From Actinobacteria bacterium UBA3086 (GTDB lineage Bacteria; Actinomycetota; Coriobacteriia; Anaerosomatales; UBA3086): a stretch of 36,852 nucleotides of DNA. Location of the stretch: contig DFBG01000162.1 of NCBI GenBank assembly GCA_002367305.1, positions 1-36,852 of the forward strand. Direction: 5' to 3'. The notes under the pieces were generated by a model that saw only the letters and a program-made list of their open reading frames with translations, was not told where the DNA came from and ran no database searches. Below, one piece after another: positions 1 through 29,224 of the stretch (position 1 is its first letter; each line of letters begins with the position of its first letter). The position numbers were made by a program, and so were the translations under genes.

Positions 1-768
1 TTCTTCAACTTCAGACCGGATCGCGCGCGTCAGATCACACACTCCTTCGTGGACGAGGAGTTCGATCACTTCTCTCGTCCCGTGACCCCGGACGTGAGGT
101 TCGTCTGCCTCACAGAGTACGATCCCAACATCCCTGCAGCGGTGGCGTTCCCCAAGGCACTGCCGTGCTGCGTGTTGGCCGATGTACTCGCCGACGAAGG
201 ACTCCGTCAGCTGCACATTGCGGAGACGGAGAAGTACGCACACGTGACCTTCTTCCTCAACGGGGGACAAGAGGCCCCCAAGGTTGGCGAGGAGCGCGTG
301 CTCATTCCCAGTCCCAAAGTGGCCACGTACGATCTCCAGCCCGAGATGAGCGCGGTCGAGGTCACCGATGCGCTGGTTTTGGCGATCAAAGCCGAGCGAG
401 CGGATTTCTATGTGGTCAACTTCGCGAACTGCGACATGGTTGGCCACACGGGTGTGCTGGAGGCAGCTGTTGTCGCCGTAGAGACGGTCGATGGGTGTGT
501 TGGCCGTGTAGTGGACGCGATTCGCGATCTGGGCGGTGCGGTACTGATCACAGCGGATCACGGCAACGCCGAGCGGATGGTGGCTGCGGATGGAAGCAGT
601 CCCTTCACCGCACACACACTGGCCGACGTGCCATTTTGTGTCGTGGCGGACGGCGTCACGGGTGTTCGTTCCGGAGGTAAGCTAGCGGACGTTGCACCTT
701 CGATTCTGTCTCTATTGGACATACCGGCACCTCAGGAGTGGACGGGCGGAAACCTCCTGCTATACTGA
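1..768 (+). CDS. gpmI: 2,3-bisphosphoglycerate-independent phosphoglycerate mutase, C-terminal portion (5' end outside window)
   Basis: Frame 1 is open from base 1 (FFNFRPDRARQITHSF...) into the listed 49..768 ORF. NFANCDMVGHTG and ITADHGNAE are the metal-site signatures of cofactor-independent PGM. Confidence 0.9.
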   Translation, partial: FFNFRPDRARQITHSFVDEEFDHFSRPVTPDVRFVCLTEYDPNIPAAVAFPKALPCCVLADVLADEGLRQLHIAETEKYAHVTFFLNGGQEAPKVGEERVLIPSPKVATYDLQPEMSAVEVTDALVLAIKAERADFYVVNFANCDMVGHTGVLEAAVVAVETVDGCVGRVVDAIRDLGGAVLITADHGNAERMVAADGSSPFTAHTLADVPFCVVADGVTGVRSGGKLADVAPSILSLLDIPAPQEWTGGNLLLY

Positions 769-9875: not shown

Positions 9876-10589
9876 GTGCTTCGGTTCAATCAGATCGTGA
9901 TCGGGGAGGGCGGACTCCCTTCCTGTGGCAAGTGCGCGCCTCATGCTGACGCGGTGTTCCGCTCGTCGGACAAGATCATTGAGAATATTCACGAGGCGGC
10001 TCAGAGTCTCCGCGGACCCGTGCTCAATGTCTCGTTCGTTGGAACTGAAGCGTTCCTTCATCCCGAAATGCCCTTGCTTGTCACTTCGGCCGTGGAAGCG
10101 GGCGCAAGCCGCGTGGGCGTCATGACCGGCGGCCAGGCGCTTTCACACGGCAACAATGCCGCAGGCATCCTTCATGCAGGTGTGAGACATGTCGACGTGG
10201 TGTGTCTGGGCGACGAGGCTACACACGATGAACTCACCCGTTCCCCTGGTTCATTCGCTGCCGCTCGTGCGGGGGTGAAGGCGGTTCATGCTGCGGCGGG
10301 AGAGGCCGGTATCCACATTGCGGTCATGGGGCATGTACCTGTGTGTCGGCACAACGTTCATGCGATCCCCGGTGCCGTGATGGAGCTCATCACCATGGGT
10401 GTGATCGCGGTGCATCTCCAGCCTGCGAATGACCTTGACGTGGCTCACAATATCGAGTGGTTCGGTGCTGCATTTCAGACAGGCATCATGCATGGAACGT
10501 GGGTGTGTGCTGAGCCTGCGGACATCAATCTCTTCGAGCGTTGGTCCCTGCACGTCGGCGATCCGTGTCACGTGGGGGTGGCACGATGA
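9876..10589 (+). CDS. hypothetical protein, radical-SAM-fold paralogue lacking the CxxxCxxC motif
   Basis: GTG start after GGAGGTG. FVGTEAFLHPEMPLLV and VGVMTGGQAL resemble the GGEPLLHP and TNG strands of MoaA/PqqE-type enzymes. The N-terminus has only SCGKCAPH (CxxC). Confidence 0.4.
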   Translation: MLRFNQIVIGEGGLPSCGKCAPHADAVFRSSDKIIENIHEAAQSLRGPVLNVSFVGTEAFLHPEMPLLVTSAVEAGASRVGVMTGGQALSHGNNAAGILHAGVRHVDVVCLGDEATHDELTRSPGSFAAARAGVKAVHAAAGEAGIHIAVMGHVPVCRHNVHAIPGAVMELITMGVIAVHLQPANDLDVAHNIEWFGAAFQTGIMHGTWVCAEPADINLFERWSLHVGDPCHVGVAR

Positions 10590-11845
10590 GTGAGCCCCTT
10601 CGCATTGCACTTGTCGCTCTCAATTCTCCGGGATATCAGTCGCTCGGCCTGGCGTATGTGCGCGCTCACGCGCAGGAGGACACTCGTCTGCGCGGGAGGG
10701 TCGCGTTCACCACACTCGATCTCTCCTCGGATGAGGATCCATGGTGGGTGGCGTATCGGGTGCTCACCATGGAGCCCGACGTGGTGGCGTTCTCGGTCAT
10801 GTGCTGGAATGCGCGAAGGATCTACGATGCCGCCGCACTCATCAAGGCCGCTCGTCCCGACACGCGGATCGTCCTCGGGGGTCCCGAGGTCTCCGAGAAT
10901 GCCCATGCGGTCCTTGCCGACAATCCGGCTGTCGAGGTCGTCGTGCGGGGAGAAGGAGAGCAGACGTTCACCGAACTCGTGGATGTCATGCGCAACGGGC
11001 GCAAGGTCAGTTACGTTGACGGTGTGACCGCGCGAGCCGGTGAACGTATCATCGCCGCTCCAGACAGGGCACTCGCCAATCTCGACGACCTGCCCTCTCC
11101 GTATCTGACGGGCGTGCTTCAACCTCTTCAGGGTTCGACCTACCTGGAGACGTTCCGCGGGTGCCCGCACAGTTGCGCGTACTGTTTCGAGGGCAAAGGG
11201 TTCCCTCAGATCCGAAGCTTCTCTCCCGAGCGCGTCAAGCGTGAAGTTCAGATGATCACCGATGCGGGTATCGATGAGTTCTCATTCATCGATCCGGTGT
11301 TCAACCTGAACAGGTCTCGGCTCGAGTTGGTGTCAGGCATCATGAAGCCCTTCGCGGACAAGGGAGTTCGTCTCCATACGATCGAGGTCGACATCGAACG
11401 CATTGACGCGGAAGAGGCCCAGCTCCTGTGGGATGCCGGTGTGCGAACAGTTGAGACCGGACCGCAGACTGTGGGTGCCAAGGCGCTCGAAATCTGTGAC
11501 CGCGGCTTCAATCGTGAACGGTTCATCACCGGGGTCGAGTCGCTCAAGAACGTGGGTATATCCGTTGAGTGCGATCTCATCGTTGGGCTTCCCGGCGACA
11601 CGACCGCCGATGTCCTCCAGAGCATCGCATTCGTGCTTTCTGTGGATCCAGGGAAGTTGCAGATGTCCACTCTGTGCGTGTTACCCGGTACCACGCTCTG
11701 GGATCGCGCCGATGAGCTCGGACTGGTGTACAATTCGCAACCACCCCACGAAGTCATTCAGACCGCTGATATCGACTTCGCTGACCTGCGGCGACTCGAG
11801 GCGTATGGCACCGCTCTCGCCGCCCGCTATCGGGCCCGTATCTGA
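10586..11845 (+). CDS. B12-binding-domain radical SAM enzyme
   Basis: The ATG overlaps the upstream stop (ATGA). N-terminal cobalamin-binding-like domain (VVAFSVMCWN...VLGGPEVS...VVRGEGE), then CPHSCAYC, which fits CxxxCxxC. Confidence 0.8.
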   Translation: MSEPLRIALVALNSPGYQSLGLAYVRAHAQEDTRLRGRVAFTTLDLSSDEDPWWVAYRVLTMEPDVVAFSVMCWNARRIYDAAALIKAARPDTRIVLGGPEVSENAHAVLADNPAVEVVVRGEGEQTFTELVDVMRNGRKVSYVDGVTARAGERIIAAPDRALANLDDLPSPYLTGVLQPLQGSTYLETFRGCPHSCAYCFEGKGFPQIRSFSPERVKREVQMITDAGIDEFSFIDPVFNLNRSRLELVSGIMKPFADKGVRLHTIEVDIERIDAEEAQLLWDAGVRTVETGPQTVGAKALEICDRGFNRERFITGVESLKNVGISVECDLIVGLPGDTTADVLQSIAFVLSVDPGKLQMSTLCVLPGTTLWDRADELGLVYNSQPPHEVIQTADIDFADLRRLEAYGTALAARYRARI

Positions 11846-13032: not shown

Positions 13033-13168
13033 CGCAGTTCGTACGGGTATGGATGTTGTCCATCAGATGATACTTGTCGGATGCCCCATCTATGCCGATA
13101 GCAGATATGGACGTTGGGTTATCGCAACCCAGTGAGATTCCCACATCGGTATGGGATTTGCTCAATAA

Positions 13169-13942
13169 GTGCGACATGAACCGACGTGGTCGAATAGGCC
13201 ACAAGGGGGCATTCCAAGAGTGAACGATACATGGAGCAAAGCTGATCTTCATATGCACAGCAGCCATAGTGACGGGCTGGCTCGGATTCCTGAGATCATG
13301 GACTACGTTCAGGATCACACCGATCTAAAGGTCATTGCCATCACCGACCACAACACCATCGACGGTGCGCTCTTCGCGCAGTCTCTTGCAGAGATGTATG
13401 ACTTCGAGGTTGTCGTCGGCGAAGAGGTCTCGTCAAAGTCCGGTCACATAATCGGACTCTATCTCACGGAGAACATTCCTGCGGGCCTGTCGGCGGCAGA
13501 GACCATCTCTCGCATCAACGACCAGAACGGTGTCGCCATCATGCCTCACCCGTTCTCAAGCCAGGGCGTATTCGGACCCCTGGGAACATCGGGTTTTGGA
13601 GCCGCGGTTAACGATCTCGCGTTCCATGCACTTGAGGTCTACAACTCAATGCCGTTCCTGGTCTGGGCCAACAAGATCGCTGCCAAGATGTTCGCTGGCG
13701 GCACCGGACTCGCCGCGACCGGCGGTTCGGACGCCCATATGCTCAAGAGCATCGGCAAGGGATATACGATGTTCAGGGGAACGACCGCGGATGAGCTGCG
13801 TGCGAGCCTGGATCGTCTGGAGACTCGCGGAGAGGCCACAGGGCGTGGCGGTCTGGGAGTGATGCTGCGCTACGCGTTCCACTTCCCGCAGATTCGTCGC
13901 CGTCAGGCATGGAACTGGGATCGCTGCAAGGCGAGCGAGTAG
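13169..13942 (+). CDS. PHP-family metal-dependent phosphoesterase
   Basis: ADLHMHSSHSDG and ITDHNTIDG are the PHP His/Asp motifs, with GGSDAH near the C-terminus. The start is uncertain (GTG 13169 or GTG 13220). Confidence 0.75.
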   Translation: MRHEPTWSNRPQGGIPRVNDTWSKADLHMHSSHSDGLARIPEIMDYVQDHTDLKVIAITDHNTIDGALFAQSLAEMYDFEVVVGEEVSSKSGHIIGLYLTENIPAGLSAAETISRINDQNGVAIMPHPFSSQGVFGPLGTSGFGAAVNDLAFHALEVYNSMPFLVWANKIAAKMFAGGTGLAATGGSDAHMLKSIGKGYTMFRGTTADELRASLDRLETRGEATGRGGLGVMLRYAFHFPQIRRRQAWNWDRCKASE

Positions 13943-16257: not shown

Positions 16258-16554
16258 CTATTTCACGCAGGATGAGTACTTGAGGAAGACCTTGATCGCC
16301 TCGTCGATAAGCTCATCGCGTGTCTTGTCCTCATCATCAATGAGGCAGTTCTTCATCGAGTGGCCGATGATGTGCATGCCGACCTGATTGAGCGCCGACT
16401 TGGCCGCCATTATCTGCGTGAGAACCGCTTCGCACTCTTTGCCTGACTCCAGCATGCTTTGGAGACCGCGAATCTGCCCCTCAAGCCGCTTGAGTCGATT
16501 GATGATCCGCTTGCGCTCAGCAACCTCGGCGACAGCTGCTATCGGTTCAGTCAT
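16258..16554 (-). CDS. CsoR/RcnR-family metal- or thiol-sensing transcriptional repressor
   Basis: INRLKRLEGQIRGLQSML...CEAVLTQIMAAKSALNQVG...HSMKNC is the CsoR-family helical-bundle signature with the two sensing Cys 29 residues apart. Confidence 0.85.
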   Translation of the reverse strand: MTEPIAAVAEVAERKRIINRLKRLEGQIRGLQSMLESGKECEAVLTQIMAAKSALNQVGMHIIGHSMKNCLIDDEDKTRDELIDEAIKVFLKYSSCVK

Positions 16555-16680: not shown

Positions 16681-17625
16681 GTGGGCTACACACGCGTGGA
16701 CACTGAGATGAGCTCTGTTCGTATCTCGCGTATCAGGCGCGTACTCATCGTCATACTCGTTCTGAATCTCGCCGTTGCCTTCGCCAAGCTCGCATGGGGT
16801 GTCATATCCGGCTCGGTCTCGATGCAGGCCGACGGTTTTCACTCGCTGTTCGACGGTACATCCAACGTGGTTGGTCTCGTCGGTCTGTATCTCGCCAGCA
16901 GGCCCGCTGATCATGATCATCCCTATGGACACGGCAAGTATGAAACGTATGCCTCCGCAGCCATCGGGGCGATGCTCATTCTGGCCGCGTACAACGTGGG
17001 CTCGTCGGCGATACGACGGCTCATGGATGGAGGTGCGTCGCCTGACGTCACCGCAGTCTCCTTTGCGGTCATGATCCTGACGCTGATGGTCAATGTCGGT
17101 ATCACGCTCTACGAGCGGCGGGTGGGAGCAGAACTACGAAGCGAGATCCTGATCGCGGATGCGAGCCACACCGCGAGTGACGTGCTGGTCAGCGGCGGTG
17201 TACTTGCCGGATTGCTCGTTGTGAAACTGGGATTCCCTATCGCTGACCCCTTGATTGCGCTCGGGGTTGCGGGTGCCATTACGTTCAGTGCGTGGCGAGT
17301 GTTCGGACAGGCGAGTGCCACGCTCACCGATTCGGCGAGGATTCCTTCGTCGGAGATATGCGATATCGTACTCGCGGTCGACGGCGTGCTGGGCTGCCAT
17401 CACATACGCACGCGTGGGTCGGCCTCCGAGGTCTATGTGGACATGCACATCCAGGTTGATCCTGCGCGTAGCGTGGAGTCCGGTCACGAGATATCCGAGA
17501 ATGTTGAACGTGCCGTCTGTGTCGGACTCGGCAATGTCGTCGATGTCATCGTGCATCTTGAACCTCTAGATGACTATCAGAGTGAGAAGACCGCTGAGGA
17601 GATCGATGCAGGACTTGCAGACTAG
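16681..17625 (+). CDS. cation diffusion facilitator (CDF) family divalent-metal efflux transporter
   Basis: HSLFD (TM2) and HTASD (TM5) form an HD-HD site, plus DHDHPYGHGKYE and a C-terminal cytoplasmic domain. The exact start is uncertain. Confidence 0.85.
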   Translation: MGYTRVDTEMSSVRISRIRRVLIVILVLNLAVAFAKLAWGVISGSVSMQADGFHSLFDGTSNVVGLVGLYLASRPADHDHPYGHGKYETYASAAIGAMLILAAYNVGSSAIRRLMDGGASPDVTAVSFAVMILTLMVNVGITLYERRVGAELRSEILIADASHTASDVLVSGGVLAGLLVVKLGFPIADPLIALGVAGAITFSAWRVFGQASATLTDSARIPSSEICDIVLAVDGVLGCHHIRTRGSASEVYVDMHIQVDPARSVESGHEISENVERAVCVGLGNVVDVIVHLEPLDDYQSEKTAEEIDAGLAD

Positions 17626-18616
17626 GGAGACGCCCCGGGAAGTGCGTGAGGGCGCGACGAGCCCCTCTGACTCGTGGAAGGGGTACGCTCTCGCGGTTCT
17701 GGCGGCGGTGAGCTGGGCCACGGGCGGGCTCATGGCCAAGTGGCTGTTCAGTCCAATCGATGCGACGACCGCTGACTGGCCTTTTCCCCCACTGGGCATC
17801 GACGTGGACCCCATGACACTCTCGGCTTCTCGAGCAGTGGTCTCGGCATTGATTCTCATGACGTATCTGCTCTTGCGTCGACGAGATGAGCTTCGGGTCA
17901 CTAGGCGGGAGCTGGCATTCCTTGCCTTCTTCGGTGTTGTGGGCCTTGCGATAGTTCATTTCACGTATTTCCAGGCGATCAGCTACACCAACGTGGCGAC
18001 GGCGATTCTGCTTGAGTATCTCGCACCCGTGATCGTGCTCGTCTTTTCGGTCGCGTTCCTGGGCGAGCGGCTGACCTGGACGCTCCCTTTCGGCGTCGGC
18101 CTCTCCGTCTCAGGGTGTGCACTGGTCGTGGGTGTTGCGAGTGGCGAGGGGATGATGATCTCGTCCGGGGGACTCTTCTGGGGCCTGGCTTCTGCGGTAT
18201 TCTTTGCAGGCTACTCGCTCCTCGGTAAGTATGCGTCCAAGAGATTCACGCCCTGGACGATGATGTCTTACGGACTCTCATCTGCGGCGATCTTCTGGTT
18301 GATCGTGCAAGGAGGTCCCAGTCGAGTTTTGGAGTTCACTGGTAGTCCTGCGGGCCTAGGCGCGGTCGTTTTCATTGCGATCGTGGGAACGATCATCCCG
18401 TTCTCATCGTTTCTCAAGGCGCTCCACTACATAGACGCGACCAAAGCGACAGTGACAGCCACACTTGAGCCAGTGCTCGCGGGTTTGGTGGCATATGTTC
18501 TGTTCGGTGAGTCCTTCGATCTCATTCAGATGACCGGTGGATTCATGGTCATCGCGGCGATCATGGTGGTTCAATCGTCCGGTCGCGCAGATCAGCTGGT
18601 TCCTCCTGCAGCGTGA
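17570..18616 (+). CDS. DMT-superfamily (EamA-type) transporter
   Basis: About ten TM helices in two EamA-like halves. The start is ambiguous (ATG 17570, ATG 17606 or GTG 17642) and it overlaps or abuts the CDF stop. Confidence 0.75.
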   Translation: MTIRVRRPLRRSMQDLQTRETPREVREGATSPSDSWKGYALAVLAAVSWATGGLMAKWLFSPIDATTADWPFPPLGIDVDPMTLSASRAVVSALILMTYLLLRRRDELRVTRRELAFLAFFGVVGLAIVHFTYFQAISYTNVATAILLEYLAPVIVLVFSVAFLGERLTWTLPFGVGLSVSGCALVVGVASGEGMMISSGGLFWGLASAVFFAGYSLLGKYASKRFTPWTMMSYGLSSAAIFWLIVQGGPSRVLEFTGSPAGLGAVVFIAIVGTIIPFSSFLKALHYIDATKATVTATLEPVLAGLVAYVLFGESFDLIQMTGGFMVIAAIMVVQSSGRADQLVPPAA

Positions 18617-18651: not shown

Positions 18652-18667
18652 TGGTATATAGTTTGCT
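18652..18667 (+). promoter_or_regulatory. candidate -24/-12 (sigma-54-type) promoter upstream of rpoN
   Basis: TGGTAT-ATAGT-TTGCT has correct GG/GC spacing and sits 45 nt upstream of the rpoN ATG. It has two mismatches to TGGCAC. Confidence 0.3.
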
Positions 18668-18711
18668 AGAGGCGCGATTCTCGCCGAATGTGTTGCGTGG
18701 TTGGAGGAGCC

Positions 18712-20109
18712 ATGGAGCTCACACAAAGGCCCAGTCTACGACAGAAGGTCACACTCTCGCCACAGGTCTATCAGGGCTTGAGTATCCTTGCTATGCCCGT
18801 TGCTGATCTGGCGCAACTCGTTGAGTCTGAGATGCTTGAGAACCCCACTCTCGAGGTGGAAGAGGTCGAGCCAGAGGTCGACGATGCCCCTGACGAGCGC
18901 GAGGAGAGGGACGCTGAGGATGAGCGTGCCTGGGATGAATGGCTCGAGATGTATGACGATCTCGATTCCTCCGATCAGGCCGCTCCCCGAGATCCCAATG
19001 CCGAGGCTGTGAACACGGACGACTTTGTCGGTGGTGTCCAGACTTTCGATGAGCACCTGAACAATCAGATCGGCATGCTCGATATCAGCGAAGAGGTGAC
19101 ACACGCCGCTCAGGCGATCGTGGGCTCTCTTGATCGCGATGGTTTCTTCGAGGGCGATCTCGAGGAGATCGCCCTGCAGACCGGCGTGGATACTGCGACT
19201 GCTGAAGAAGCGCTGTTCGCCGTTCAGCAGTTGGACCCGCCAGGTGTAGGGGCGACTGATCTCGCCAGTGCCCTCTCCATACAGATGCAGCATCTGGGCA
19301 TCGAGGAGCCGTTGCTGGAGATGATCGTGCGCGAGCATCTCGATGACATCGCGGCTAACCATTACCGCAAGGTTGCCCGGATGTTGAAAGTGGATGAGGC
19401 GGAAGTGCGTCGGGTCGTGGAGATCATGCGTACACTCAATCCGCGACCGGCGGGAGCATTCTCGCCTGGGCCTTCGCCGGGCTACATCGTTCCAGATATC
19501 ACGCTACGTCGTTTCGATGACGACTGGCTCATCATTGCCAACAACGAGGCAGTGCCCACTTTGAGGGTGTCTCCTCGATATCGCTCAATGTTGCGCAGCG
19601 GATCAAGCGCTGACGATGAGACGCGTCGCTATCTCAAGGAGCGGATTCGATCGGCCGAGAGCTTCATCCGCAACGTGGATCGTCGCAAGGACACAGTCAG
19701 TCGCATCGCGGAGATCATCCTCGAGGTACAGTCTGAATTCTTCGAGGACGGAAAGGGTCCGCTGCGTCCGTTGCGTCTTGAGGACGTGGCAGTTGAGATA
19801 GGTGTTCACCTCTCCACGGTGAGCCGAGGTGTTACCGCCAAGTATATGGATACGCCATACGGACTGTTCGAGCTCAAGCATTTTTTCTCGGGTGGCTACC
19901 GCACGAGACAGGGGTTCGATATTGCGGCGACCAGCATCAAGCAACGTTTGCGTGAGCTCGTAACCGAAGAGGACGCTGCAAAGCCGCTGTCCGATCAGAA
20001 GATCGCCGAGCTGCTGAGTAACGAAGGTGTCACCGTGGCGCGACGCACCGTGGCCAAGTATCGTGAGGAGCTCACGATCGAGCCTTCGTGGGCAAGGCGA
20101 CGCCGATGA
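18712..20109 (+). CDS. rpoN: RNA polymerase sigma-54 factor
   Basis: Region I MELTQRPSLRQKVTLSPQVYQGLSILAMP, an acidic region II, and the C-terminal RpoN box ARRTVAKYR. ATG 18712 follows GGAGGAG; the ORF-track start is 18688. Confidence 0.95.
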   Translation: MELTQRPSLRQKVTLSPQVYQGLSILAMPVADLAQLVESEMLENPTLEVEEVEPEVDDAPDEREERDAEDERAWDEWLEMYDDLDSSDQAAPRDPNAEAVNTDDFVGGVQTFDEHLNNQIGMLDISEEVTHAAQAIVGSLDRDGFFEGDLEEIALQTGVDTATAEEALFAVQQLDPPGVGATDLASALSIQMQHLGIEEPLLEMIVREHLDDIAANHYRKVARMLKVDEAEVRRVVEIMRTLNPRPAGAFSPGPSPGYIVPDITLRRFDDDWLIIANNEAVPTLRVSPRYRSMLRSGSSADDETRRYLKERIRSAESFIRNVDRRKDTVSRIAEIILEVQSEFFEDGKGPLRPLRLEDVAVEIGVHLSTVSRGVTAKYMDTPYGLFELKHFFSGGYRTRQGFDIAATSIKQRLRELVTEEDAAKPLSDQKIAELLSNEGVTVARRTVAKYREELTIEPSWARRRR

Positions 20110-21635
20110 CGCCGCTCTCCGACATTCCTTCATCGCAGGAGTTGGGTCGGGCAGATCAGGGCGATCAGGGCAAACGGATCCGGTCTGTGTCGGCGATCGT
20201 CGCGATGTTGCTCACGGTAACGATCCTGCATCTGTTCACCAATGCGACGGGGGACAACCAAGTCCTCCACATGCTGTATCGCAGGCTCTACTACATTCCC
20301 ATCCTGTATGCGGCGTTCGTCTTTGGACGTCGGGGAGGAGTGCTGTCCGCATTGGCGGCGGCGATTCCCTTTGGCTTTCACGCACAGATGACGCTCGGCG
20401 GGTTGACTGGTCCGCATCTGGACAACTCCATGGAAATCGTGATGTATCTCGGCGTAGGACTTCTCTTTGGCCAGCTGCGTGATACGGATGAGCGACGTAA
20501 TCGTGATCTTCGTGATCTCTCGGGACGGCTGGAGGACGCCTACAAGACTCTTGAGGATCGGGCCATAGAGCTCATCAACGTCCAGGATTTCTCGCAGTCC
20601 ATTCTGAGATCGATCACGTCCGGCGTGCTCACCATCGGCCCCGATGGTTCGGTCATGACCTCGAACCCCGCAGCTGAGCGCATGTTAGGGCTTTCCGAGT
20701 ACGAGATGGTTCCGCAGCATATTCGCACGCTGTTCAGAGATGATGGCGGACTCACGCTTGATATCGAACGGGTTCTCTCCGGCCGACTGCCGCTGACACT
20801 TCGCGAGGTCTCGCTCGTGACGCGAGCCAACCGAACGATGCAGGTCCAGGCGTCGTGCTCACGTATGCGGGCGGTGGGAGGTAGGATCCTCGGTGCTGTT
20901 CTGACCATTGAGGACATCTCGGAGGTCAAATCGCTGACGGAGCAGCTGATCCGTTCGGATCGACTCGCCGCCATGGGCGAGTTGACGGCGGGTGTTGCAC
21001 ATGAGGTCAGAAACCCGTTGGGGGTCATCCGGGCTTCCGTGCAACTGCTTGAAGATGCAAAGTGCGACGAGGGCCGGATGCTCGAAGCGACGGGTGTCAT
21101 CAAACAGGAGATCGATCGTCTCGACAAGGTCGTCAAGGCCCTCCTCGACTTCGGTAGACCCTCACGGCCGACACTCTTGGCCATTCCGGTCGAAGGCGTG
21201 CTCAACGATGTCGTTCTCTTCACAAAGCGTTTCGCCAAGCAGGCGGAAGTCTCGATCAATCTGAACTTCCCAGATGACCTCTCTCCGGTCTTGGGTGACC
21301 CCGACCAACTGAAACAGGTGTTTCTCAACCTCGTGACCAATGCGGTTCAGGCCATGGAGAAGCAGGGTGGTCACATCGAGGTGAACGCGGTCAACGATGG
21401 CGACTTCGTTGAAGTGAGAGTTATGGATGACGGCCCAGGCATTCCGTCCCGCGATCTTGGGAAGGTGTTCGACCCCTTCCACTCCACGCGCGATGAGGGC
21501 ACGGGGTTGGGACTGACGATCGTTCATCGAATCATAGAGGAGCATGATGGGCATATCGAGGTAGAAAGTGACCCGGATGGTACGGCGTTCACGGTATCGT
21601 TACCGATCGCAATAGAACACGGGGGAGTGGAATGA
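20106..21635 (+). CDS. membrane PAS sensor histidine kinase (NtrB-like)
   Basis: ATGA overlap with the rpoN stop. N-terminal TM helices, a PAS domain, H-box HEVRNPL, N-box NLVTNAVQAM, and G-boxes DDGPGI / GTGLGL. Confidence 0.9.
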   Translation: MTPLSDIPSSQELGRADQGDQGKRIRSVSAIVAMLLTVTILHLFTNATGDNQVLHMLYRRLYYIPILYAAFVFGRRGGVLSALAAAIPFGFHAQMTLGGLTGPHLDNSMEIVMYLGVGLLFGQLRDTDERRNRDLRDLSGRLEDAYKTLEDRAIELINVQDFSQSILRSITSGVLTIGPDGSVMTSNPAAERMLGLSEYEMVPQHIRTLFRDDGGLTLDIERVLSGRLPLTLREVSLVTRANRTMQVQASCSRMRAVGGRILGAVLTIEDISEVKSLTEQLIRSDRLAAMGELTAGVAHEVRNPLGVIRASVQLLEDAKCDEGRMLEATGVIKQEIDRLDKVVKALLDFGRPSRPTLLAIPVEGVLNDVVLFTKRFAKQAEVSINLNFPDDLSPVLGDPDQLKQVFLNLVTNAVQAMEKQGGHIEVNAVNDGDFVEVRVMDDGPGIPSRDLGKVFDPFHSTRDEGTGLGLTIVHRIIEEHDGHIEVESDPDGTAFTVSLPIAIEHGGVE

Positions 21636-22990
21636 ACGAGCGGATTCTGATCGCTGATGATGAGAAGAACATGCGCTGGGTTCTGAGTCAGGCGCTCGAG
21701 GCCGCTGACTTCGAGGTCATTCAGGCCGAGAATGGGAAACAGGCTCTCAAAGCGATAGAGGAGCAACAGCCTGATGTCATGATTCTCGATCACCGGATGC
21801 CTGCGCCAGACGGTATGGAGGTTCTGCGCACGCTTCGTTCAAAGGACTACACCTTCCCCGTCATCATGCTCACTGCTCACGGGAACGTGCAGCTCGCGGT
21901 CGAGGCGATCAAGGCCGGGGCGAGTGAATATCTCACCAAGCCTTTCGATCTCGAGGAGCTCAAGCTGGCGATCGACAAGGCCATCCGCATGAGCGGGCTG
22001 GCTGCTGAGGTGCAGCGGCTGCGTGACGAGGTGGGACGCGACTACGATATGGAAGGCATCGTCGCAGGTGACGAGGGCATGCTGGCGGCTCTCGATACCG
22101 TGCATAAGGTGGCACCCACGAATGCGACCGTCGTCGTCTACGGTGAGTCCGGAACCGGCAAGGAACTCGTTGCTCGGGCGATCCATGAGCTTTCCGAGCG
22201 CAAGGGCAAACCGTTCGTATCGATCAGTGCCGGTGCGCTGCCGGAGACACTGCTCGAGAGCGAACTCTTCGGCTATGAGAAGGGGGCATTCACCGGTGCA
22301 GTCAGTGCGAAGCCTGGACGCTTTGAGATGGCCAACGGTGGCACTCTGTTTCTGGACGAGATCGGCGACATCACCCCTGCAGTTCAGGTCAAACTCCTGC
22401 GTGTGCTTCAGGAGCGTCGTTTCGAGAGGCTCGGGGGGACCCGGACCATCGAGGTGGATGTGCGCGTAGTAGCTGCCACCAATCGAGATTTGCAGCAGTT
22501 GATCGTGGACGGGGAGTTTCGAGAGGATCTCTTCTACCGCCTCAATGTGGTTCCGCTCACGCTTCCGCCACTCAGGCAGAGGTCGAGCGATGTGCCCATG
22601 CTCGTCGCTCATTTTCTGGAGAAGTTCAATGCCGGGAGCAAGCATATTTCCGATGAAGCTATGCAGGCGCTCATCGGGTACAAGTGGCCAGGCAACATTC
22701 GCGAGCTGGAGAACACGATAGAGCGACTTATCATCCTGTCCCATGAGGATAAGATCACCACGGCTGATCTACCGGTGGAGATTCGCGCGGGTCTTGGGTC
22801 GTTCTCCGATGCCAGGCCGGGTGGGTTCCTGTTGCCCGATGAGGGGATAGACCTCGAGGAAGTGGAACTCGATCTGGTCAGACAAGCACTTGAGCGATCA
22901 GGGGAGTCGGTACCGAAGGCGGCCAAACTCTTGGGACTCACGACCAAGACCATGGAGGCGCGCCTGTCACGGTTCGGCCTAAAGAACTGA
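21632..22990 (+). CDS. sigma-54-dependent response regulator (NtrC family enhancer-binding protein)
   Basis: ATGA overlap with the kinase stop. Receiver domain (ILIADDE, ILDHRMP, TKPF), AAA+ domain with GESGTGKE and GAFTGA, and a C-terminal Fis-type HTH. Confidence 0.95.
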
Positions 22991-23039
22991 TTACCGTTCA
23001 CCGTCTCGCTGCCACCACTCATCGGAGCGGCCGGTTTCT

Positions 23040-23055
23040 TGGCACACCAGTTGCA
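23040..23055 (+). promoter_or_regulatory. sigma-54 (-24/-12) promoter TGGCAC-ACCAG-TTGCA
   Basis: Full match to TGGCAC-N5-TTGCW. It lies 49 nt after the activator stop and 45 nt before the AAGGAG-ATG of the next gene. Confidence 0.75.
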
Positions 23056-23099
23056 CTTCTCGGAGAAAGATCAACTGTACGTCCAAAAAGGAGCAACGG

Positions 23100-23483
23100 A
23101 TGGCCGGCAGGCCACATACACGCTTGTTCATCATCATCACCACTGCGGTGTCGTTGGTGCTCTCTCTGTTCGCTGTGCTGCATATCGCCAACGGTGGGTT
23201 GGGATTCGAGGGATGCACTGCTACGGCGACGTTCGGTTGGCTTATTCCGTTACTCTCAGGAGCGCTGGTTGCGGTAATCGCGTGGATGCTCATCGATGGG
23301 GACCGTGGTGGTCCCTCGGACTCGGTCAAGGGCGACCCTGAGGCTACCGTCTGCATGTATTGTGGGAGCGGCATCCTTCAAGAGTGGAAGCTCTGCCCCT
23401 ACTGCGGGCAGTTGAGGGAGTGCGACATGCGTATCGATCCTCATGCTGGGCGTCGCTCGGTGGAGGATTCACCACAGACCTGA
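23100..23483 (+). CDS. 2-TM membrane protein with C-terminal cytoplasmic zinc ribbon
   Basis: AAGGAG RBS, two hydrophobic helices, and C-terminal CMYCG-x10-CPYCG. Confidence 0.6.
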   Translation: MAGRPHTRLFIIITTAVSLVLSLFAVLHIANGGLGFEGCTATATFGWLIPLLSGALVAVIAWMLIDGDRGGPSDSVKGDPEATVCMYCGSGILQEWKLCPYCGQLRECDMRIDPHAGRRSVEDSPQT

Positions 23484-23509
23484 CTCTGCCACCGATGTTA
23501 GGGGTGCAC

Positions 23510-23737
23510 ATGGCTTCATTGACCAACACTGTGCTTGAGACAACGGGACTGCATTGTCGGTCCTGTTCCATGATGGTGGATATGACGGTCGGCGATCTCG
23601 ATGGGGTTGTCTCGTCCGAGACTGATTATGTGACCGGAGTCACCAAGGTGGAATTCGATTCTGACGTCGTTACCCTAGAGGGTATACTGGACGCGATTCG
23701 TTCTGCAGGATATGGTGCAGAGATTCCAAGCAAATAG
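23510..23737 (+). CDS. heavy-metal-associated (HMA, CopZ-like) domain protein
   Basis: 75 aa with the ferredoxin-like HMA pattern. The metal loop is GLHCRSC instead of GMTCxxC. The long ORF-track N-terminal extension (23360) overlaps the previous gene. Confidence 0.7.
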   Translation: MASLTNTVLETTGLHCRSCSMMVDMTVGDLDGVVSSETDYVTGVTKVEFDSDVVTLEGILDAIRSAGYGAEIPSK

Positions 23738-23764
23738 CCTGAATTGCGAGAGGACATTCTGACA

Positions 23765-24316
23765 ATGACTGAACAGGCGTACACCACTGGCGCACGCACG
23801 AAGTATCTCCTTATCGGCGTTATCGTGGTGCTCGCGTTCTTTGCCAGCTATGGTTTCGCGGCATCCCGGAGTGCATCGGTGAGTGAGGCGAATCTGGAAA
23901 CTGGCGGTGCGTATCCTGCTGCCTATGGTACGGATACCTCTCTCGCTTGTGACGGCGCAGAGTCGGGTGGCTGTGGTGGCGAAGGAGAAGGCGAAGAGTC
24001 GGGCGGTTGCGGTGGCGGTTCAGGTGCCGTGGTCGAAGGTGCGACCGTTTCGGATGGCACGGTGCAGTCCATTGCCATCGACCTGTCTGAGGGATTCTTC
24101 AACCCAAATGTGATCTACGTCGAGGCTGGCACGCCGCTCGTGCTCGAGTTTGGTGAGGGACATGGATGCATGGCCGAGGTCATGTTCTCAGAGTTCGGCA
24201 TCTTGGAAGATGTCACCGATGGTGGCGCAGTGATCGAGCTGCCCGCCCTCGAGATCGGCGAGTACGGATTCTCCTGCGGCATGGAGATGGTATACGGCGT
24301 TCTTGTCGTCCGCTAG
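23765..24316 (+). CDS. signal-anchored protein with Cys/Gly-rich linker and cupredoxin-like C-terminal domain
   Basis: One N-terminal TM helix, then the linker ESGGCGG-EGEGE-ESGGCGG, then a beta-rich domain ending EGHGCMAEV...YGFSCGMEMVYGVLVV. This resembles EfeO-type cupredoxin-like domains. Confidence 0.5.
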   Translation: MTEQAYTTGARTKYLLIGVIVVLAFFASYGFAASRSASVSEANLETGGAYPAAYGTDTSLACDGAESGGCGGEGEGEESGGCGGGSGAVVEGATVSDGTVQSIAIDLSEGFFNPNVIYVEAGTPLVLEFGEGHGCMAEVMFSEFGILEDVTDGGAVIELPALEIGEYGFSCGMEMVYGVLVVR

Positions 24317-24409
24317 TAGACACACGTTTGCCCATGACGCCTGCCTGGGGATATTGTTTCGCAGGTGATGATATGTATGGTGCCCTACGGTGCCTGCCGC
24401 GCATTCTGA

Positions 24410-25153
24410 GTGAAGGGACTTCTCGTGGACGGTAGTTCGATCGGCTTCGTCGCGGCATTCGTCGCGGGTCTTGTGTCGTTCCTTTCGCCCTGCGTTCTTC
24501 CGCTGATACCCGGATACATCTCATTCATGACCGGTCTCAGTATGAGCGAGCTCAATGAGGGCAAAGGTGGCGTCCGGGCGATTCTCGCGCCGTCACTGTT
24601 GTTCGTCGCTGGTTTCTCATTCGTGTTCGTGGCCCTGGGTGCCTCGGCATCGGTCCTGGGCTCGGTCCTCATGGACTATCGAAGTCAGCTCGAGATAGCC
24701 GCCGGTGTTCTCGTGTTCCTCCTGGGCTTCTTCATGCTGGGCATCATCAAGGTGCCCTGGCTGTATGGTGAGGCTCGCATGGAGATGTCGCGCTCCAGGA
24801 GTTTCGGCAAAGGTGCCGCGCTCATCATGGGCATGGCCTTCGCCTTCGGATGGACCCCGTGTGTCGGACCGATCCTGGGTTCGATCCTTGCACTCGCTGG
24901 GTCCAGTGGCAGTGTCGGTAGGGGTGCGGCGTTGTTGGCCGTCTATTCGTTGGGACTCGGCGTACCGTTCATACTCACGGCACTGTTGTTCGGTCGCATG
25001 ACCGGTGTGCTGAGGTGGCTGAACCAGCGTTCACTCGTGATCAACCGCGTGGCCGGAGCGTTGCTCATGGCTGTCGGCGTGCTCATCTTCACTGGCCGCC
25101 TCTCCATCCTTGCCGGATGGCTCACCAGGATCCTCCCGACGATCGAACTCTGA
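24410..25153 (+). CDS. ccdA: CcdA/DsbD-family transmembrane thiol:disulfide electron transporter
   Basis: FLSPCVLPLIPGY and GWTPCVGPILG are the two conserved Cys motifs of CcdA. Six predicted TM helices. Confidence 0.9.
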   Translation: MKGLLVDGSSIGFVAAFVAGLVSFLSPCVLPLIPGYISFMTGLSMSELNEGKGGVRAILAPSLLFVAGFSFVFVALGASASVLGSVLMDYRSQLEIAAGVLVFLLGFFMLGIIKVPWLYGEARMEMSRSRSFGKGAALIMGMAFAFGWTPCVGPILGSILALAGSSGSVGRGAALLAVYSLGLGVPFILTALLFGRMTGVLRWLNQRSLVINRVAGALLMAVGVLIFTGRLSILAGWLTRILPTIEL

Positions 25154-25211: not shown

Positions 25212-28200
25212 GTGTTGCACGTGGGATTCGGGCGCAGCCGCATAGCGAGCCTGGCAGCCAGACTCGTCGCCATAACAGTCGTGATCGTGATTCTTGCTGT
25301 CACGATCATCAGTACGACAGCGCTAGCCGGAGTGTATGAGCTTGCCCGGCACCAAGTGGGCGAACGTCATCAGACGCTCGTAGATGGCCTATCCGTTGAG
25401 ATCGAAACTCGTTTGAGTGGGGTTTCTCGGGTCGTTCAGCGAGGTGCTGCCAGCGCTGCAACTGCCGAGGCCGGGGCCTTCGACTCCGAGACGTTCCTTC
25501 AAGAGTACGCGGACGGGGTCACGTACATCGATAGGCTCGTGATAGCCCGTGATGGAGTGGTTCTCGGAGTGCTGCCGGTCTCTGACCCACCCACATTCTT
25601 GACGGGGGATGCTTCTTTACCCGCGACTTCTGTTAATCGCACCTTCTTCTATGAGCCGTTGGCCGATGGCACCATGGCGGTTTGGGCAACTCAGGAGACG
25701 CAGAACGGGCTCACGGTCTATGCAAGGATGCGCTCCAATCTCCTGGCCGAGAGGGTCTTGGAAGCTTCTGATGTGATGCAGGAGCGCGTGGCACTGGTCG
25801 TGGACGAGGACGGAGGAGTCATCGCGGAAGGGCGAGGAGCCTCCGACCTCGTGCTCTCTTCCGTTGAGTACGAGCACGATGACTCGATCGGTGGCGCAGT
25901 CAGCGTGAAGACCGTGGACGGGGTTTCGCTCATCGGTCGTTTTGCGGACTCAGACCCGAATCTGGGAGTCAACTGGCGCATCCTTGTGGCGGAGCCACGG
26001 ACTACGATGCGCGATGCGACGTTCGATGCGCTGATTCCTGCTGTGCTTGCTCTGATACTGACGGGATTCGTCTCGGTCATCATCGCCACCATTGCCGGTC
26101 ATAGACTGATTCGACCGCTGAAGGATCTTGAAGCGCGCGCGTATGAGGGTGCAGTAGGAGCGTACGTCCGCCCGATACGTGCGGAGCGTGCCGACGAGGT
26201 CGGTCGGTTGGCTGAAGCCTTCAACATGATCGCGCTGCGGTTGAATTCGCTTCACGATCTTTCTCAGCTTCTGGCCAGTTCATCACATTCGGATGAGGTG
26301 CTTGATCGGATACTCTCGGCTACCTCCCACATAGTGGGCACGGGGAGTGTGGCGATCTATCTCTTTGATGACGAGAGGACGTCGCTCTATCCTGCTCGTG
26401 CCAGAGGGTCGCTTCAGCACACGGCGCAATCGGTCGTGGACCACAAGAGCGGATGGCTCATGAATGCGGCCCTCGCAGGCGGCCCGACAGCGTTCTCTGG
26501 ATTGCCTCCCGAACTGGCGGCGACATTCGATGTGGAGGATTCCGACGAGCCCATCACCTGTCTAACCGCTCCTCTTTCTGTCGCCGATGACGTGCTTGGA
26601 GTCATTCTGATCATTCGACGGAATCGTCGTTCCATGACGCAGGCGGAAACGGAGATGATTCGAACTCTCTCTGCGCAGGCTGCCATCGCCGTGCACAACG
26701 CACATCTCTTCGCCGAAGAGTCCGCTTCAAGACGTGAAGCGGAGCTTATGCGAATAGTGGCGGAACATCTCGCTCGTCCGGGCGACCTTGCTGATTCGCT
26801 TGTCTCAGTCTGTGACATTGCCTGTGAACTTCTGGGCGGATACGTCTGCAAACTCGCTGTGATCGAACCGCAGCAGTTCGGTCTTTCGATGCCTGAGACT
26901 TCCGTGAACACGGCACTCTTGCAGCTCTGGCGAGAACAAGAACCCAAACAAGGGCAGGGTGTAATGCTCGTGGCGGGGCAAGATCAACGAGCCGATGCCC
27001 TTCTCGGGTTGTTTAGCGCACAGCAGGTGGAGCTGATCCCTGTTGTGAGGTCCAGTGGTCCTGCAGGGGTATTTGCCCTCTTCCACGCGGAGAACCATGG
27101 TCCCCCAACTGGCCATGAACGGACTCTCGCTGCTGCCGTGGCCCAACAGGTTGCTCTCGCACTTGAGAATGCCTTCTACTTCCAGGAGGCCCAAAATCGC
27201 ACTGCGGATCTCGAGACCGTATTTCGGATCAGCCAAGCAGTCAGCTCTTCGTTGCAGATCAAGGTCGTACTCAACCGTGTACTCGATGTGGTCCAGAAGA
27301 TCTTCTCGGCGGACGCGGTCGCCCTCATGACTTACGACGAGTCCCGCAAGCGACTGAGCACCGCAATGGCGCGGGGGACAGTTTCCTCTGGGCTGCTGCA
27401 CTACGATCGACCCGTCGGTGATGATGTGATCGGCTGGGTGTTCGAGTCTCACGAACCGACGCGTATCGACGCGCTGGATACGGTCGATGATGATCTGGCC
27501 AAGGGCGTGGCGCGCAGAGGACTCAGGTCATTACTCACTGTGCCGTTGCTGGCTCGGGGTCGCAGCATCGGCGTGCTTTCCGTGTTCTCAAGGGAGCCGA
27601 ATGCCTTTGGCGATGCAGATATGGAGCTGCTGCACACGTTCGCCTCGCAGGCGGCGTTGGCCATCGATACGGCAAATGTCTACAGTCGGGAGCACAAGGT
27701 CGCCTCCGTTCTGCAGTCGAGTATTCTTCCTGCGGAGTTGCCGGTGTTCGATGAGCTTGAGACCTCGACCGTCTACTTGCCCTCTGGAGGCGAGTCGGAG
27801 ATCGGTGGTGACTACTACGACGTGTTTCGCGCCCCGGATGATCGCATTGTTGCCGCGATGGCGGATGTTTGCGGTAAGGGCATCGAAGCGGCGACCAAGA
27901 CGTCGATGATCAAATACACGATCAGGGCACTCGTGGCTGCCGGGTATGAGCCGGCCCAAGTGCTGTCGGAAGTGAACCGTATGGTCGCAGCGGGAGGGCG
28001 TTCGACGGACATTGTGACCGTGTGGATCGGTTTTCTGGATGTCGCTGCAGGTGAGATCACACATGCTGATGGAGGGCATCCGCCTGCTCTGTTGCTCCGT
28101 GCGGACGGTGGTGAGGTTGACCGTCTCGGTGTGACCGGACCATTGCTTGGTGCGGTCGATAACGCAGTGTATGAGCAGGAGAGCACTCGTGTTCAGCAGG

Positions 28201-28427
28201 GAGATGTCGTTCTCCTGTACACCGATGGAGTGACCGAGGCGCGAGAAGGGAATAAGTTCTTTGGCGAGGGTCGAGTCCGCCGCGCTCTGCATTACGGTGG
28301 CTCGGCCGTTGACGTATCGCAGCGGTTGCACGCTGCACTTGATCGCTTCGTCCGCGGCGACCTGCGTGATGACGCCGCGGTACTTGTTTTGAAGATTCAC
28401 CCTCAGCATCAAGAGACGAGCACGTGA
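25212..28427 (+). CDS. membrane sensor: extracytoplasmic domain-HAMP-3xGAF-PP2C (SpoIIE/RsbU-type) phosphatase
   Basis: TM helix, about 250 aa of extracytoplasmic domain, second TM helix, HAMP domain (RPLKDLE...EVGRLAEAFNMIALRL), and three GAF-like segments. PP2C motifs are GGDYYDVF, DVCGKG and TDGVTEA. Confidence 0.85.
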   Translation: MLHVGFGRSRIASLAARLVAITVVIVILAVTIISTTALAGVYELARHQVGERHQTLVDGLSVEIETRLSGVSRVVQRGAASAATAEAGAFDSETFLQEYADGVTYIDRLVIARDGVVLGVLPVSDPPTFLTGDASLPATSVNRTFFYEPLADGTMAVWATQETQNGLTVYARMRSNLLAERVLEASDVMQERVALVVDEDGGVIAEGRGASDLVLSSVEYEHDDSIGGAVSVKTVDGVSLIGRFADSDPNLGVNWRILVAEPRTTMRDATFDALIPAVLALILTGFVSVIIATIAGHRLIRPLKDLEARAYEGAVGAYVRPIRAERADEVGRLAEAFNMIALRLNSLHDLSQLLASSSHSDEVLDRILSATSHIVGTGSVAIYLFDDERTSLYPARARGSLQHTAQSVVDHKSGWLMNAALAGGPTAFSGLPPELAATFDVEDSDEPITCLTAPLSVADDVLGVILIIRRNRRSMTQAETEMIRTLSAQAAIAVHNAHLFAEESASRREAELMRIVAEHLARPGDLADSLVSVCDIACELLGGYVCKLAVIEPQQFGLSMPETSVNTALLQLWREQEPKQGQGVMLVAGQDQRADALLGLFSAQQVELIPVVRSSGPAGVFALFHAENHGPPTGHERTLAAAVAQQVALALENAFYFQEAQNRTADLETVFRISQAVSSSLQIKVVLNRVLDVVQKIFSADAVALMTYDESRKRLSTAMARGTVSSGLLHYDRPVGDDVIGWVFESHEPTRIDALDTVDDDLAKGVARRGLRSLLTVPLLARGRSIGVLSVFSREPNAFGDADMELLHTFASQAALAIDTANVYSREHKVASVLQSSILPAELPVFDELETSTVYLPSGGESEIGGDYYDVFRAPDDRIVAAMADVCGKGIEAATKTSMIKYTIRALVAAGYEPAQVLSEVNRMVAAGGRSTDIVTVWIGFLDVAAGEITHADGGHPPALLLRADGGEVDRLGVTGPLLGAVDNAVYEQESTRVQQGDVVLLYTDGVTEAREGNKFFGEGRVRRALHYGGSAVDVSQRLHAALDRFVRGDLRDDAAVLVLKIHPQHQETST

Positions 28428-28447
28428 CGATACAAATGGAGAGTGGG

Positions 28448-29224
28448 ATGGCTGTAGGGATCCGCCGGGAAGGGCAGTCCGGTACGTGTATCGTTGATTT
28501 CGAAGGTGATATTGATATCTCCGTTGTGCCCGAATTCCGCCGTGAACTGGAGTTTGCACTCGCCGGAGGGTGTTCTCATATCGTGATCGACCTCAGTCGT
28601 GTGGAGTATGCGGATAGTTCAGCGCTGGGACTTCTCGTTTGGCTGGATCGCCGTTTGACTCCTATCGAGGGGCGTTTGGTCCTAGCGGGAGTGACCCATG
28701 ATGTCGCTCGTGTTTTGGAGCTTTCCGGTCTCGTGTCGGTGGCTAGATCGATCACTACCACGTCCAGCGTGAAGATCGCGCTCGAAGGACTCGATTTCCA
28801 AGAGGCTCAAGTAGATCCTCTGTGGACGCGTCGGGTCTTGATGAGCGCTGACGTGGATGTGCTGGGGGATATGCGGCGGGAGGTCTGCCGCATAGCTGGG
28901 CCGCTCGGATTCTCTGAGGCCGCTCTATTCGATATCAAAGTGGCGGTCGGGGAGGCCCTAGCGAATGCAGTGCGACACGGCTCATCCAGTGTCGAGGACA
29001 GTATTGAGATCGTGATAAGGGCCTACGATGATCGCTTGGTCATCGATGTGGAGGATACCGGGGTAGGCTTCGATGGCGAGCACAATGGGGCAGATGATCC
29101 GTATGCATCTGGCGGTCGGGGCATAATGTTCATGCGGGCACTTATGGATCGCGTGGAATTCTCGTCACGGGAGAAATCGGGTACGCTCGTGACACTCGTG
29201 AAGCATCGAGCTCCCGTGGGCTAG
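28448..29224 (+). CDS. fusion protein: STAS anti-sigma-antagonist domain plus RsbW/SpoIIAB-type serine kinase (HATPase) domain
   Basis: N-terminal half has the STAS pattern with the phosphorylatable DSSALG motif. C-terminal half has EALANAVRHG (N-box), DTGVGF and GGRGIMFM. ATG 28448 follows GGAGAG. An alternative GTG at 28424 overlaps the phosphatase stop (GTGA). Confidence 0.8.
   Translation: MAVGIRREGQSGTCIVDFEGDIDISVVPEFRRELEFALAGGCSHIVIDLSRVEYADSSALGLLVWLDRRLTPIEGRLVLAGVTHDVARVLELSGLVSVARSITTTSSVKIALEGLDFQEAQVDPLWTRRVLMSADVDVLGDMRREVCRIAGPLGFSEAALFDIKVAVGEALANAVRHGSSSVEDSIEIVIRAYDDRLVIDVEDTGVGFDGEHNGADDPYASGGRGIMFMRALMDRVEFSSREKSGTLVTLVKHRAPVG

Follow-up and report, generated by a model that had tools for sequence, protein, structure and literature searches.

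A predicted sigma-54 regulatory module in an uncultured clade of Coriobacteriia

Described sigma-54 systems and the locus under study

We analysed a 36,852-nucleotide stretch of DNA (contig DFBG01000162.1 of Actinobacteria bacterium UBA3086; hereafter the window) that carries rpoN, the gene for sigma-54, together with genes for a membrane histidine kinase (HK), an NtrC-class enhancer-binding protein (EBP, the activator) and a candidate target operon. Actinobacteria were listed as having no sigma-54 system by Francke et al. 2011 (PMC3162934), and according to a 2025 survey Actinomycetota have in effect no working RpoN (PMC12316311); high GC is among the reasons proposed for this lack (PMC3162934, PMC12316311). 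The literature thus confirmed one premise of the original prediction for this locus, that the phylum is classically described as sigma-54-less. For Coriobacteriia or OPB41 we came across no publication dealing with sigma-54.

The closest described systems each share part of what is seen here. Rhodobacter capsulatus has, in the account given in PMC6925177, a nifU2-rpoN "autoactivated superoperon" (Cullen et al. 1994) in which rpoN has a promoter that depends on sigma-54 and an activator, with positive feedback, and a constitutive second promoter supplies the basal level. The sigma-54 gene of the Xanthomonas rpoN2-vemR-fleQ operon is co-transcribed with genes for a response regulator and an enhancer-binding protein, both of which work together with that sigma factor (PMC12271599, PMC6637908). 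ZraSR-ZraP of E. coli and Salmonella combines a ZraS/AtoS-like kinase and an NtrC-class regulator with a metal/envelope stress theme, and its two-component operon regulates itself through a sigma-54 promoter (PMC12316311). Small regulons and an AtoS/AtoC-like two-component pair are found in Borrelia (Hk2-Rrp2-RpoN-RpoS) and Chlamydia (AtoS/AtoC-like CtcB-CtcC), which have a single activator (PMC3162934). In Cereibacter sphaeroides, RpoN3-AprX pairs a sigma-54 with one activator of its own and very few targets (PMC11999139).

Comparison of the window with related genomes suggests that the locus is a functional sigma-54 regulatory module, inherited vertically within an uncultured clade of Coriobacteriia (Anaerosomatales and relatives), and we consider this likely.

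The rpoN operon and its candidate promoters

Relatives were taken from a scan with RpoN of one genome per GTDB species. The best 80 of 320 were kept and their loci numbered with an L prefix (L006, L010 and so on), as were the outgroup loci L084 and L087; locus denominators differ by feature. RpoN identity ranged from 66 to 87% across these 80 genomes. An identical copy of the window RpoN was present in Logan assemblies of two sequencing runs, and homologues at 74-87% identity were plentiful, the named ones coming from metagenome-assembled genomes (MAGs) of Coriobacteriia or Actinomycetota. The sigma-54 genes of MAGs had already been so named by automatic annotation.

The RpoN of the window has the three-domain architecture of the sigma-54 family, with Sigma54_AID (PF00309), CBD (PF04963) and DBD (PF04552) all above the Pfam cutoff (E 2e-12 to 1e-55). 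It scores 399.9 bits against TIGR02395 (cutoff 277) and can be aligned over its whole length to sigma-54 chains of known structure (E 2e-74). The RpoN box ARRTVAKYR, responsible for -24 recognition, is present in the window protein and in all 80 orthologues, and GG-N10-GC (-24/-12) sites lie before genes of the locus. This rpoN is the sole copy seen at the locus. A start at 18688 was rejected, the ATG listed in Table 1 having a ribosome-binding site (RBS; GGAGGAG) and being the one also used by public gene calls.

The kinase that follows has a transmembrane (TM) block resembling DUF4118 (below the Pfam cutoff). The activator has the receiver, AAA+ and Fis-type helix-turn-helix (HTH) domains of the NtrC class: Response_reg (PF00072, residues 5-114), Sigma54_activat (PF00158, E 1.5e-70), AAA_lid_14 and HTH_8 (PF02954, residues 408-448), with Walker A (GESGTGKE) at residue 171, GAFTGA at 218 and Walker B (DEIG) at 242. 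It matches Aquifex NtrC4 (4l4u) over its full length, and GAFTGA is present in 71/71 orthologues. The genes are joined by ATGA overlaps, rpoN to the kinase at 20106-20109 and the kinase to the activator at 21632-21635. The original prediction had named this gene trio and both overlaps, and the Pfam domains, GAFTGA, RpoN box and coordinates bear it out. From this arrangement we read rpoN, the membrane PAS histidine kinase and the NtrC-class activator as one operon. No second activator-like match was found in 1.1 Mb of clade sequence, all of it from the same neighbourhood.

An exact TGGCAC-N5-TTGCA site, P2, lies 49 nt after the activator stop, as originally proposed. The AAAGGAG-preceded ATG at 23100 was also found where expected, at a distance of 44 nt rather than the predicted 45. 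By chance the exact pattern would turn up 0.02 times per window (2 of 100 shuffles). With one mismatch allowed the expectation rises to 0.94, which is not above chance, so that comparative conservation carries the argument. TGGCAY-N5-TTGCA was present in 67 of 69 loci, 7-84 nt past the end of the activator alignment, and its N5 spacer varies freely. The start codon of the first downstream gene lies 36-44 nt past P2 in 45 of the 60 loci with a first open reading frame (ORF) called. Across loci this first ORF conserves only its topology and zinc ribbon. It is followed in the window by genes for a CopZ-like HMA protein (CopZ/MerP-type NCBIfam matches are below cutoffs), a cupredoxin-like protein and CcdA, whose translation shows both cysteine motifs. 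The cupredoxin gene is accessory: it was detected in only a few loci among those listed, and also in the outgroup L084. Sigma factor, kinase, activator, consensus promoter and target operon are thus colinear, as had been predicted from the sequence of the window.

Two further sites, P1 before rpoN and P0 before a PHP-family gene, were found by relaxing the -24 element. Besides P0, P1 and P2 nothing in the window matches GGYAY-N5-TTGCW (0.33 matches expected), and all three are intergenic, on the coding strand and before RBS-preceded starts. Elsewhere in the loci the site pattern occurs 20 times in 2.23 Mb (both strands), or about 0.0013 times per 140-nt search window. P1 was found as [TC]GGTAY-N5-TTGCW in 72 of 79 loci; before the PHP orthologue, 51 of 68 loci have P0 as NGG[CT]AY-N5-TTGCW. 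Across loci GG and TTGC are fixed at all three sites while the N5 spacer is variable, and the median distance from site to start is 47-48 nt for P0 and P1. In place of the single promoter and single target originally proposed, the locus therefore has three conserved sigma-54-type sites within 12 kb, one of them before rpoN and one 5.5 kb upstream of that gene, beyond the coordinates of the original prediction. We predict from these patterns that P1 is the autoregulatory promoter of rpoN and that the PHP gene is a probable extra member of the regulon; its product has weak PDB matches to PHP phosphoesterases.

P1 could instead be a housekeeping, sigma-70-type extended -10 (TGnTATAnT), in which case rpoN would not be autoregulated and sigma-54 would serve P2 and perhaps P0 only. 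In 49 of 72 loci A/T-rich bases come after TGGTAT, but TTGC[AT] lies exactly 10 nt past GG in 72 of 79, and 23 loci have TGGTAC-type sites, most without the TAnnnT hexamer and with TTGC at the exact spacing. The outgroups differ: L084 has TGGTAGAAT before rpoN, without a TTGC element, whereas L087 has a near-consensus TGGCACG-N4-GTGCT there. The seven loci without P1 (L043, L053, L055, L060, L065, L066, L068) form a subclade with a conserved sigma-70-like GGGGATAATG at the same place (AATCGGGGATAATG, about 55-60 nt before rpoN). All seven retain P2 and six also P0, as if the promoter before rpoN had been exchanged in nature. A sigma factor dependent on itself must have a second promoter anyway, as in the account of the R. 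capsulatus nifU2-rpoN superoperon (PMC6925177). We regard a purely sigma-70-type P1 as unlikely. The sigma-54 and sigma-70 readings are compatible, and all the data can be accommodated by a composite promoter; most economically, P1 is read as a sigma-54 promoter on which a sigma-70-type -10 is superimposed in many clade members. Such an overlap would give the basal expression that a self-dependent sigma factor needs. Read-through from the CDF-EamA genes is another possible source of basal rpoN expression, nothing resembling a terminator being present between EamA and rpoN. Across 16.4-29.4 kb, scans for sigma-70 promoters and terminators gave matches at chance level.

Directly past P1 there are GC-rich inverted repeats in the window (18668-18690, GGCGCGATTCTCGCC) and in L022, L031, L033, L035 and L036. 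They share their position though not their sequence, and may fold into a hairpin in the 5' leader.

A search for enhancer dyads (half-sites of 4-5 nt, spacers of 0-14) upstream of P1 and P2 returned only repeats from the coding sequence of the conserved activator C-terminus; the DNA upstream of both sites is coding, which masks motifs. A GCCGAT[AG] motif (window 13090-13100) lies 17-55 nt upstream of P0 in relatives, in 38 of 51 loci against a background of 27%. We rejected it as a common enhancer because it is not enriched at P1 (16/72) or P2 (3/67). It could be the site of another regulator or a second promoter element.

Table 1. Candidate promoter sites and genes of the locus, in window coordinates.
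Feature	Coordinates	Strand	Basis or detail
P0, sigma-54-type -24/-12 site CGGTATGGGATTTGCT	13147..13162	+	57 nt before PHP-family gene
PHP-domain metallohydrolase (CehA/McbA family)	13220..13942	+	NCBIfam NF038032, 88.2 bits (cutoff 80)
CsoR-family metal-sensing repressor, divergent from CDF gene	16258..16554	-	PF02583; conserved in 71 loci
CDF cation-efflux and EamA transporter genes, directly before rpoN	16681..18616	+	Pfam Cation_efflux with ZT_dimer, EamA
P1, -24/-12-type site TGGTATATAGTTTGCT	18652..18667	+	44 nt before rpoN ATG
rpoN (sigma-54), 465 aa	18712..20109	+	Pfam, NCBIfam, structure match
Sensor histidine kinase, AtoS/ZraS-like	20106..21635	+	TM block with short loops, PAS, HisKA, HATPase_c
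NtrC-class enhancer-binding response regulator	21632..22990	+	REC, AAA+ with GAFTGA, HTH_8
P2, consensus sigma-54 promoter TGGCACACCAGTTGCA	23040..23055	+	Exact TGGCAC-N5-TTGCA
First target gene, 127-aa 2-TM protein with C-terminal zinc ribbon (C-x2-CG ... W ... R-x-CP-x-CG)	23100..23483	+	
CopZ-like HMA metallochaperone, 75 aa, CxxC	23510..23737	+	PF00403; found in 63 loci
TM-anchored Cupredoxin_1 protein, 183 aa, Cys/Gly-rich linker	23765..24316	+	PF13473
CcdA/DsbD_TM thiol-disulfide electron transporter	24425..25153	+	PF02683; found in 57 loci

Host clade and origin of the module

The cassette sits in a conserved gene order across about 80 species-level genomes: aminotransferase, PHP, HemH(-), Trx, DUF302, CsoR(-), CDF, EamA, rpoN, HK, EBP, zinc-ribbon protein, HMA, (cupredoxin), CcdA and GAF/PP2C. 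The CDF-EamA pair upstream of rpoN is syntenic in most loci, and the neighbourhood is rich in metal- and thiol-related genes (Trx, CsoR, CDF, HMA, cupredoxin, CcdA). Upstream of the aminotransferase that precedes P0, two genes overlap (window 9876-11845): one encodes a 237-aa radical-SAM-like protein, the other resembles B12-binding radical SAM methyltransferases (KedN5/HpnJ-like matches below cutoffs). A partner-switching set flanks the sigma-54 module. It comprises two sensor PP2C (SpoIIE-type) phosphatases, MASE3-PAS-GAF-PP2C at 7313-9748 (-) and HAMP-GAF-GAF-PP2C at 25212-28427 (+), the second overlapping a STAS/RsbW-like kinase fusion at 28424-29224 (+); a GAF-PP2C gene follows CcdA in most related loci.

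Record titles place the clade as follows: 67 of 80 records carry the label Actinomycetota, Actinomycetes, Coriobacteriia, Coriobacteriales, Coriobacteriaceae or Anaerosomatales (Coriobacteriia predominate and one is Anaerosomatales, an order within Coriobacteriia in the NCBI lineage), 12 are titled "Eubacteriales" and one has no label. The twelve are "uncultured Eubacteriales bacterium" third-party annotation (TPA) MAGs (L006, L010, L012, L013, L014, L017, L020, L021, L023, L034, L047, L070) with RpoN identities of 71-77% and full synteny with Coriobacteriia-labelled records. The clade could accordingly be mis-assigned or its bins chimeric, the true phylum being a sigma-54-rich one such as Bacillota and the finding ordinary. 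Markers of the phylum lend this some weight, as neither a WhiB gene nor an Actinobacteria-specific RNA turned up in the sequence examined: tblastn with three WhiB family sequences gave no match in the window and 1.1 Mb of loci, and when the window and seven loci were compared with Rfam at gathering thresholds one tRNA was all that appeared. We nevertheless judge misplacement to be quite improbable. The 67 labels come from many separate MAG sets (UBA, HGW, NC_groundwater, SMAG, MFD, Zodletone and others), several labelled records are contigs of 0.8-1.4 Mb, and the cassette is embedded in long syntenic contigs, so that mis-binning is not the issue. The "Eubacteriales" records come from a single submitter, who names sister genomes "Coriobacteriaceae", and their title is probably wrong.

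The sequence about 10 kb past the window ends holds tpi-gpmI-secG and housekeeping genes, with no diagnostic taxonomic marker. The tpi-gpmI-secG genes are linked upstream of an Opp-type ABC transporter (L090/L091, the left extension of the contig; window 49-768), in a mixture of Firmicutes-type tpi-gpmI and actinobacterial-type tpi-secG. We take the arrangement at the contig edge to resemble the actinobacterial tpi-secG one, which offers soft evidence against misplacement. The original prediction had compared parts of the window with Streptomyces; the host is not Streptomyces-like, and the locus belongs to an uncultured Coriobacteriia clade with a GC content of about 58%. A search for cultured carriers with the RpoN of an Anaerosomatales MAG gave no Anaerosoma or Parvivirga entry among the best 120 matches, which were MAG or unnamed proteins only.

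At 50% clustering the whole RpoN clade collapses to one full-length representative (69% identical), and the next full-length relatives are 39-43% identical, the named ones scattered (Fuchsiella, Akkermansiaceae). RpoN identity co-varies with that of flanking genes (HemH r=0.81, CDF 0.71, HK 0.66), which, with the flat GC of the window (0.56-0.62), makes recent acquisition unlikely. A recently acquired horizontal module, that is a mobile sigma-54 regulon, would fit with the reported lack of rpoN in other Actinomycetota, with a self-contained architecture that would move easily and with a similar rpoN-HK-EBP cassette in two high-GC lineages. Yet the position and flanks are the same in about 80 species-level genomes, no mobility genes were seen among the ORFs and gene calls examined, and outside relatives are distant. 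We consider such a recent transfer very improbable. Of the two origins originally offered, lineage-specific retention and an acquired regulon, the sequences point to long-standing inheritance within the clade (synteny, uniform GC, co-divergence, no relative closer than 43%) and not to recent acquisition; an ancient transfer into the ancestor of the clade may have taken place. That the cassette is a decaying relic without present function is hardly credible, since the genes are full-length with invariant catalytic and recognition motifs in 71-80 species, promoter elements are kept while spacers drift, and the genes are tightly coupled through the ATGA overlaps. We did not find features that favour this relic reading.

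The two closest outgroups, L084 (63.5% GC) and L087 (70.7% GC), both have rpoN-HK. L084, with an RpoN 42% identical, has the full rpoN-HK-EBP set (the L084:1750-2764 region carries a -24/-12 site) and, 6 kb away, zinc-ribbon and cupredoxin gene homologues preceded by a perfect TGGCACACTTCTTGCT. L087 has the near-consensus TGGCACGTAGCGTGCT about 55 nt before rpoN (L087:950-1012). These cassettes and the target homologues of L084 suggest that the link between the sigma-54/two-component unit and its targets is older than the Coriobacteriia clade, and the high-GC lineages may extend the distribution of the module further. Another relative has a solitary rpoN, and in Fuchsiella the gene stands in the Firmicutes context whiA-sigL-cggR-gap; comparison with the latter supports the earlier statement that the arrangement here differs from the usual rpoN neighbourhood. 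The original prediction took an arrangement common in the host clade as the outcome that would speak against it; the arrangement is indeed common in the clade, but not in the phylum.

Several points weigh against the proposed module. The invariance of GG and TTGC is in part a product of the pattern search, the real statistic being the fraction of loci with a match. In 17 of 68 loci P0 is missing or escaped detection, and a search for 10-mers (up to 2 mismatches) common to the regions upstream of P0, P1 and P2 in 40 genomes gave nothing consistent; with no shared enhancer motif, P0 may be served by another activator. P1 doubles as an extended -10 (TGGTATAnT) in about two-thirds of the genomes, and its sigma-70-like replacement in seven loci means that autoregulation is not universal. 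The placement of the clade in Actinomycetota/Coriobacteriia rests on record titles, twelve of them discordant, and on the NCBI lineage of Anaerosomatales. Finally, the signal and the target functions are read from domain families.

Proposed mechanism and comparison with known systems

Complete motif conservation suggests that the mechanism is canonical NtrC-type activation. Sigma-54, kinase and activator would be present at a low basal level, through CDF-EamA read-through or the sigma-70-like extended -10 over P1. A membrane or cytoplasmic signal would lead the kinase to phosphorylate the receiver domain of the activator, which would oligomerise and, by ATP hydrolysis and its GAFTGA loop, open the closed complexes of the sigma-54 holoenzyme. 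P2 would then drive production of the 2-TM zinc-ribbon and CopZ-like HMA proteins, of CcdA and, in genomes that have it, of the cupredoxin-like protein; P1 would raise the regulators themselves, giving positive feedback, and P0 would drive the PHP enzyme. The targets and the neighbourhood (Trx, CsoR, CDF, HMA, cupredoxin-like protein, CcdA) suggest a metal/thiol-redox envelope response. We infer that the role may be a response to envelope metal (copper-type) or thiol-redox stress, ZraSR-like in logic. This offers a testable hypothesis for metal/thiol stress sensing in abundant subsurface and sediment Coriobacteriia.

More tentatively, an order-level clade of Actinomycetota may have kept, or gained long ago, a working sigma-54 in the form of a minimal self-activating operon with one activator, three local promoters in 12 kb and metal/thiol targets. 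If true, the phylum would have its first functional sigma-54 system, one that behaves as a stand-alone module of the extracytoplasmic function (ECF) type, and the same module and targets in a second deep lineage would mark a regulatory unit both ancient and portable. With a conserved and intact sigma-54 system in at least 80 species-level genomes, most of them Coriobacteriia-labelled, the distribution map calls for revision. The GC argument for the lack of sigma-54 is weakened by a clade at about 58% GC with related cassettes at 63-71%. With sigma factor, sensor, activator and own promoter beside the targets, the locus is a compact natural system for the feedback and bootstrap problem of sigma-54, and the subclade that swapped its rpoN promoter for a sigma-70-like one puts a natural comparison on offer.

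Compared with the described systems, the locus differs from each in a particular way. In R. capsulatus, as far as described in PMC6925177, NifA is encoded elsewhere and the system serves a nitrogen-fixation regulon in another phylum, whereas here sigma factor, kinase and activator stand in one operon with metal/thiol envelope targets; a composite P1 or upstream read-through would play the part of the constitutive promoter. Xanthomonas rpoN2 is a second paralogue for flagella, with no kinase in its operon and a single-domain VemR, while here a complete two-component system stands beside rpoN. In Borrelia and Chlamydia, rpoN is not known to share an operon with the kinase and activator. Cereibacter, a proteobacterium, has RpoN3 beside three other RpoN paralogues, with no kinase involved and no autoregulation described.

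ZraSR is close at the level of the proteins: the ZraR structure matches the activator at E 1e-85, and NCBIfam ZraS, ZraR and AtoS/AtoC are among the best matches of the regulators. The scores are below the equivalog cutoffs (AtoS 345.7 against 646, AtoC 481 against 714, ZraS 202 against 479, ZraR 388.8 against 760), which makes the pair an analogue of AtoSC/ZraSR and not a member. Moreover, ZraS has a periplasmic sensor domain where the kinase here has short loops and a PAS domain, the target there is ZraP, a periplasmic chaperone, and that system has no linked rpoN.

Precedents thus exist singly, for an autoregulated rpoN, an rpoN-activator operon, one-activator systems and dedicated RpoN-activator pairs; for a single operon in Actinomycetota that unites them with a kinase, we found none. 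Together, these comparisons describe a module with a canonical predicted mechanism, an unusual architecture and a host group in which it was not expected.

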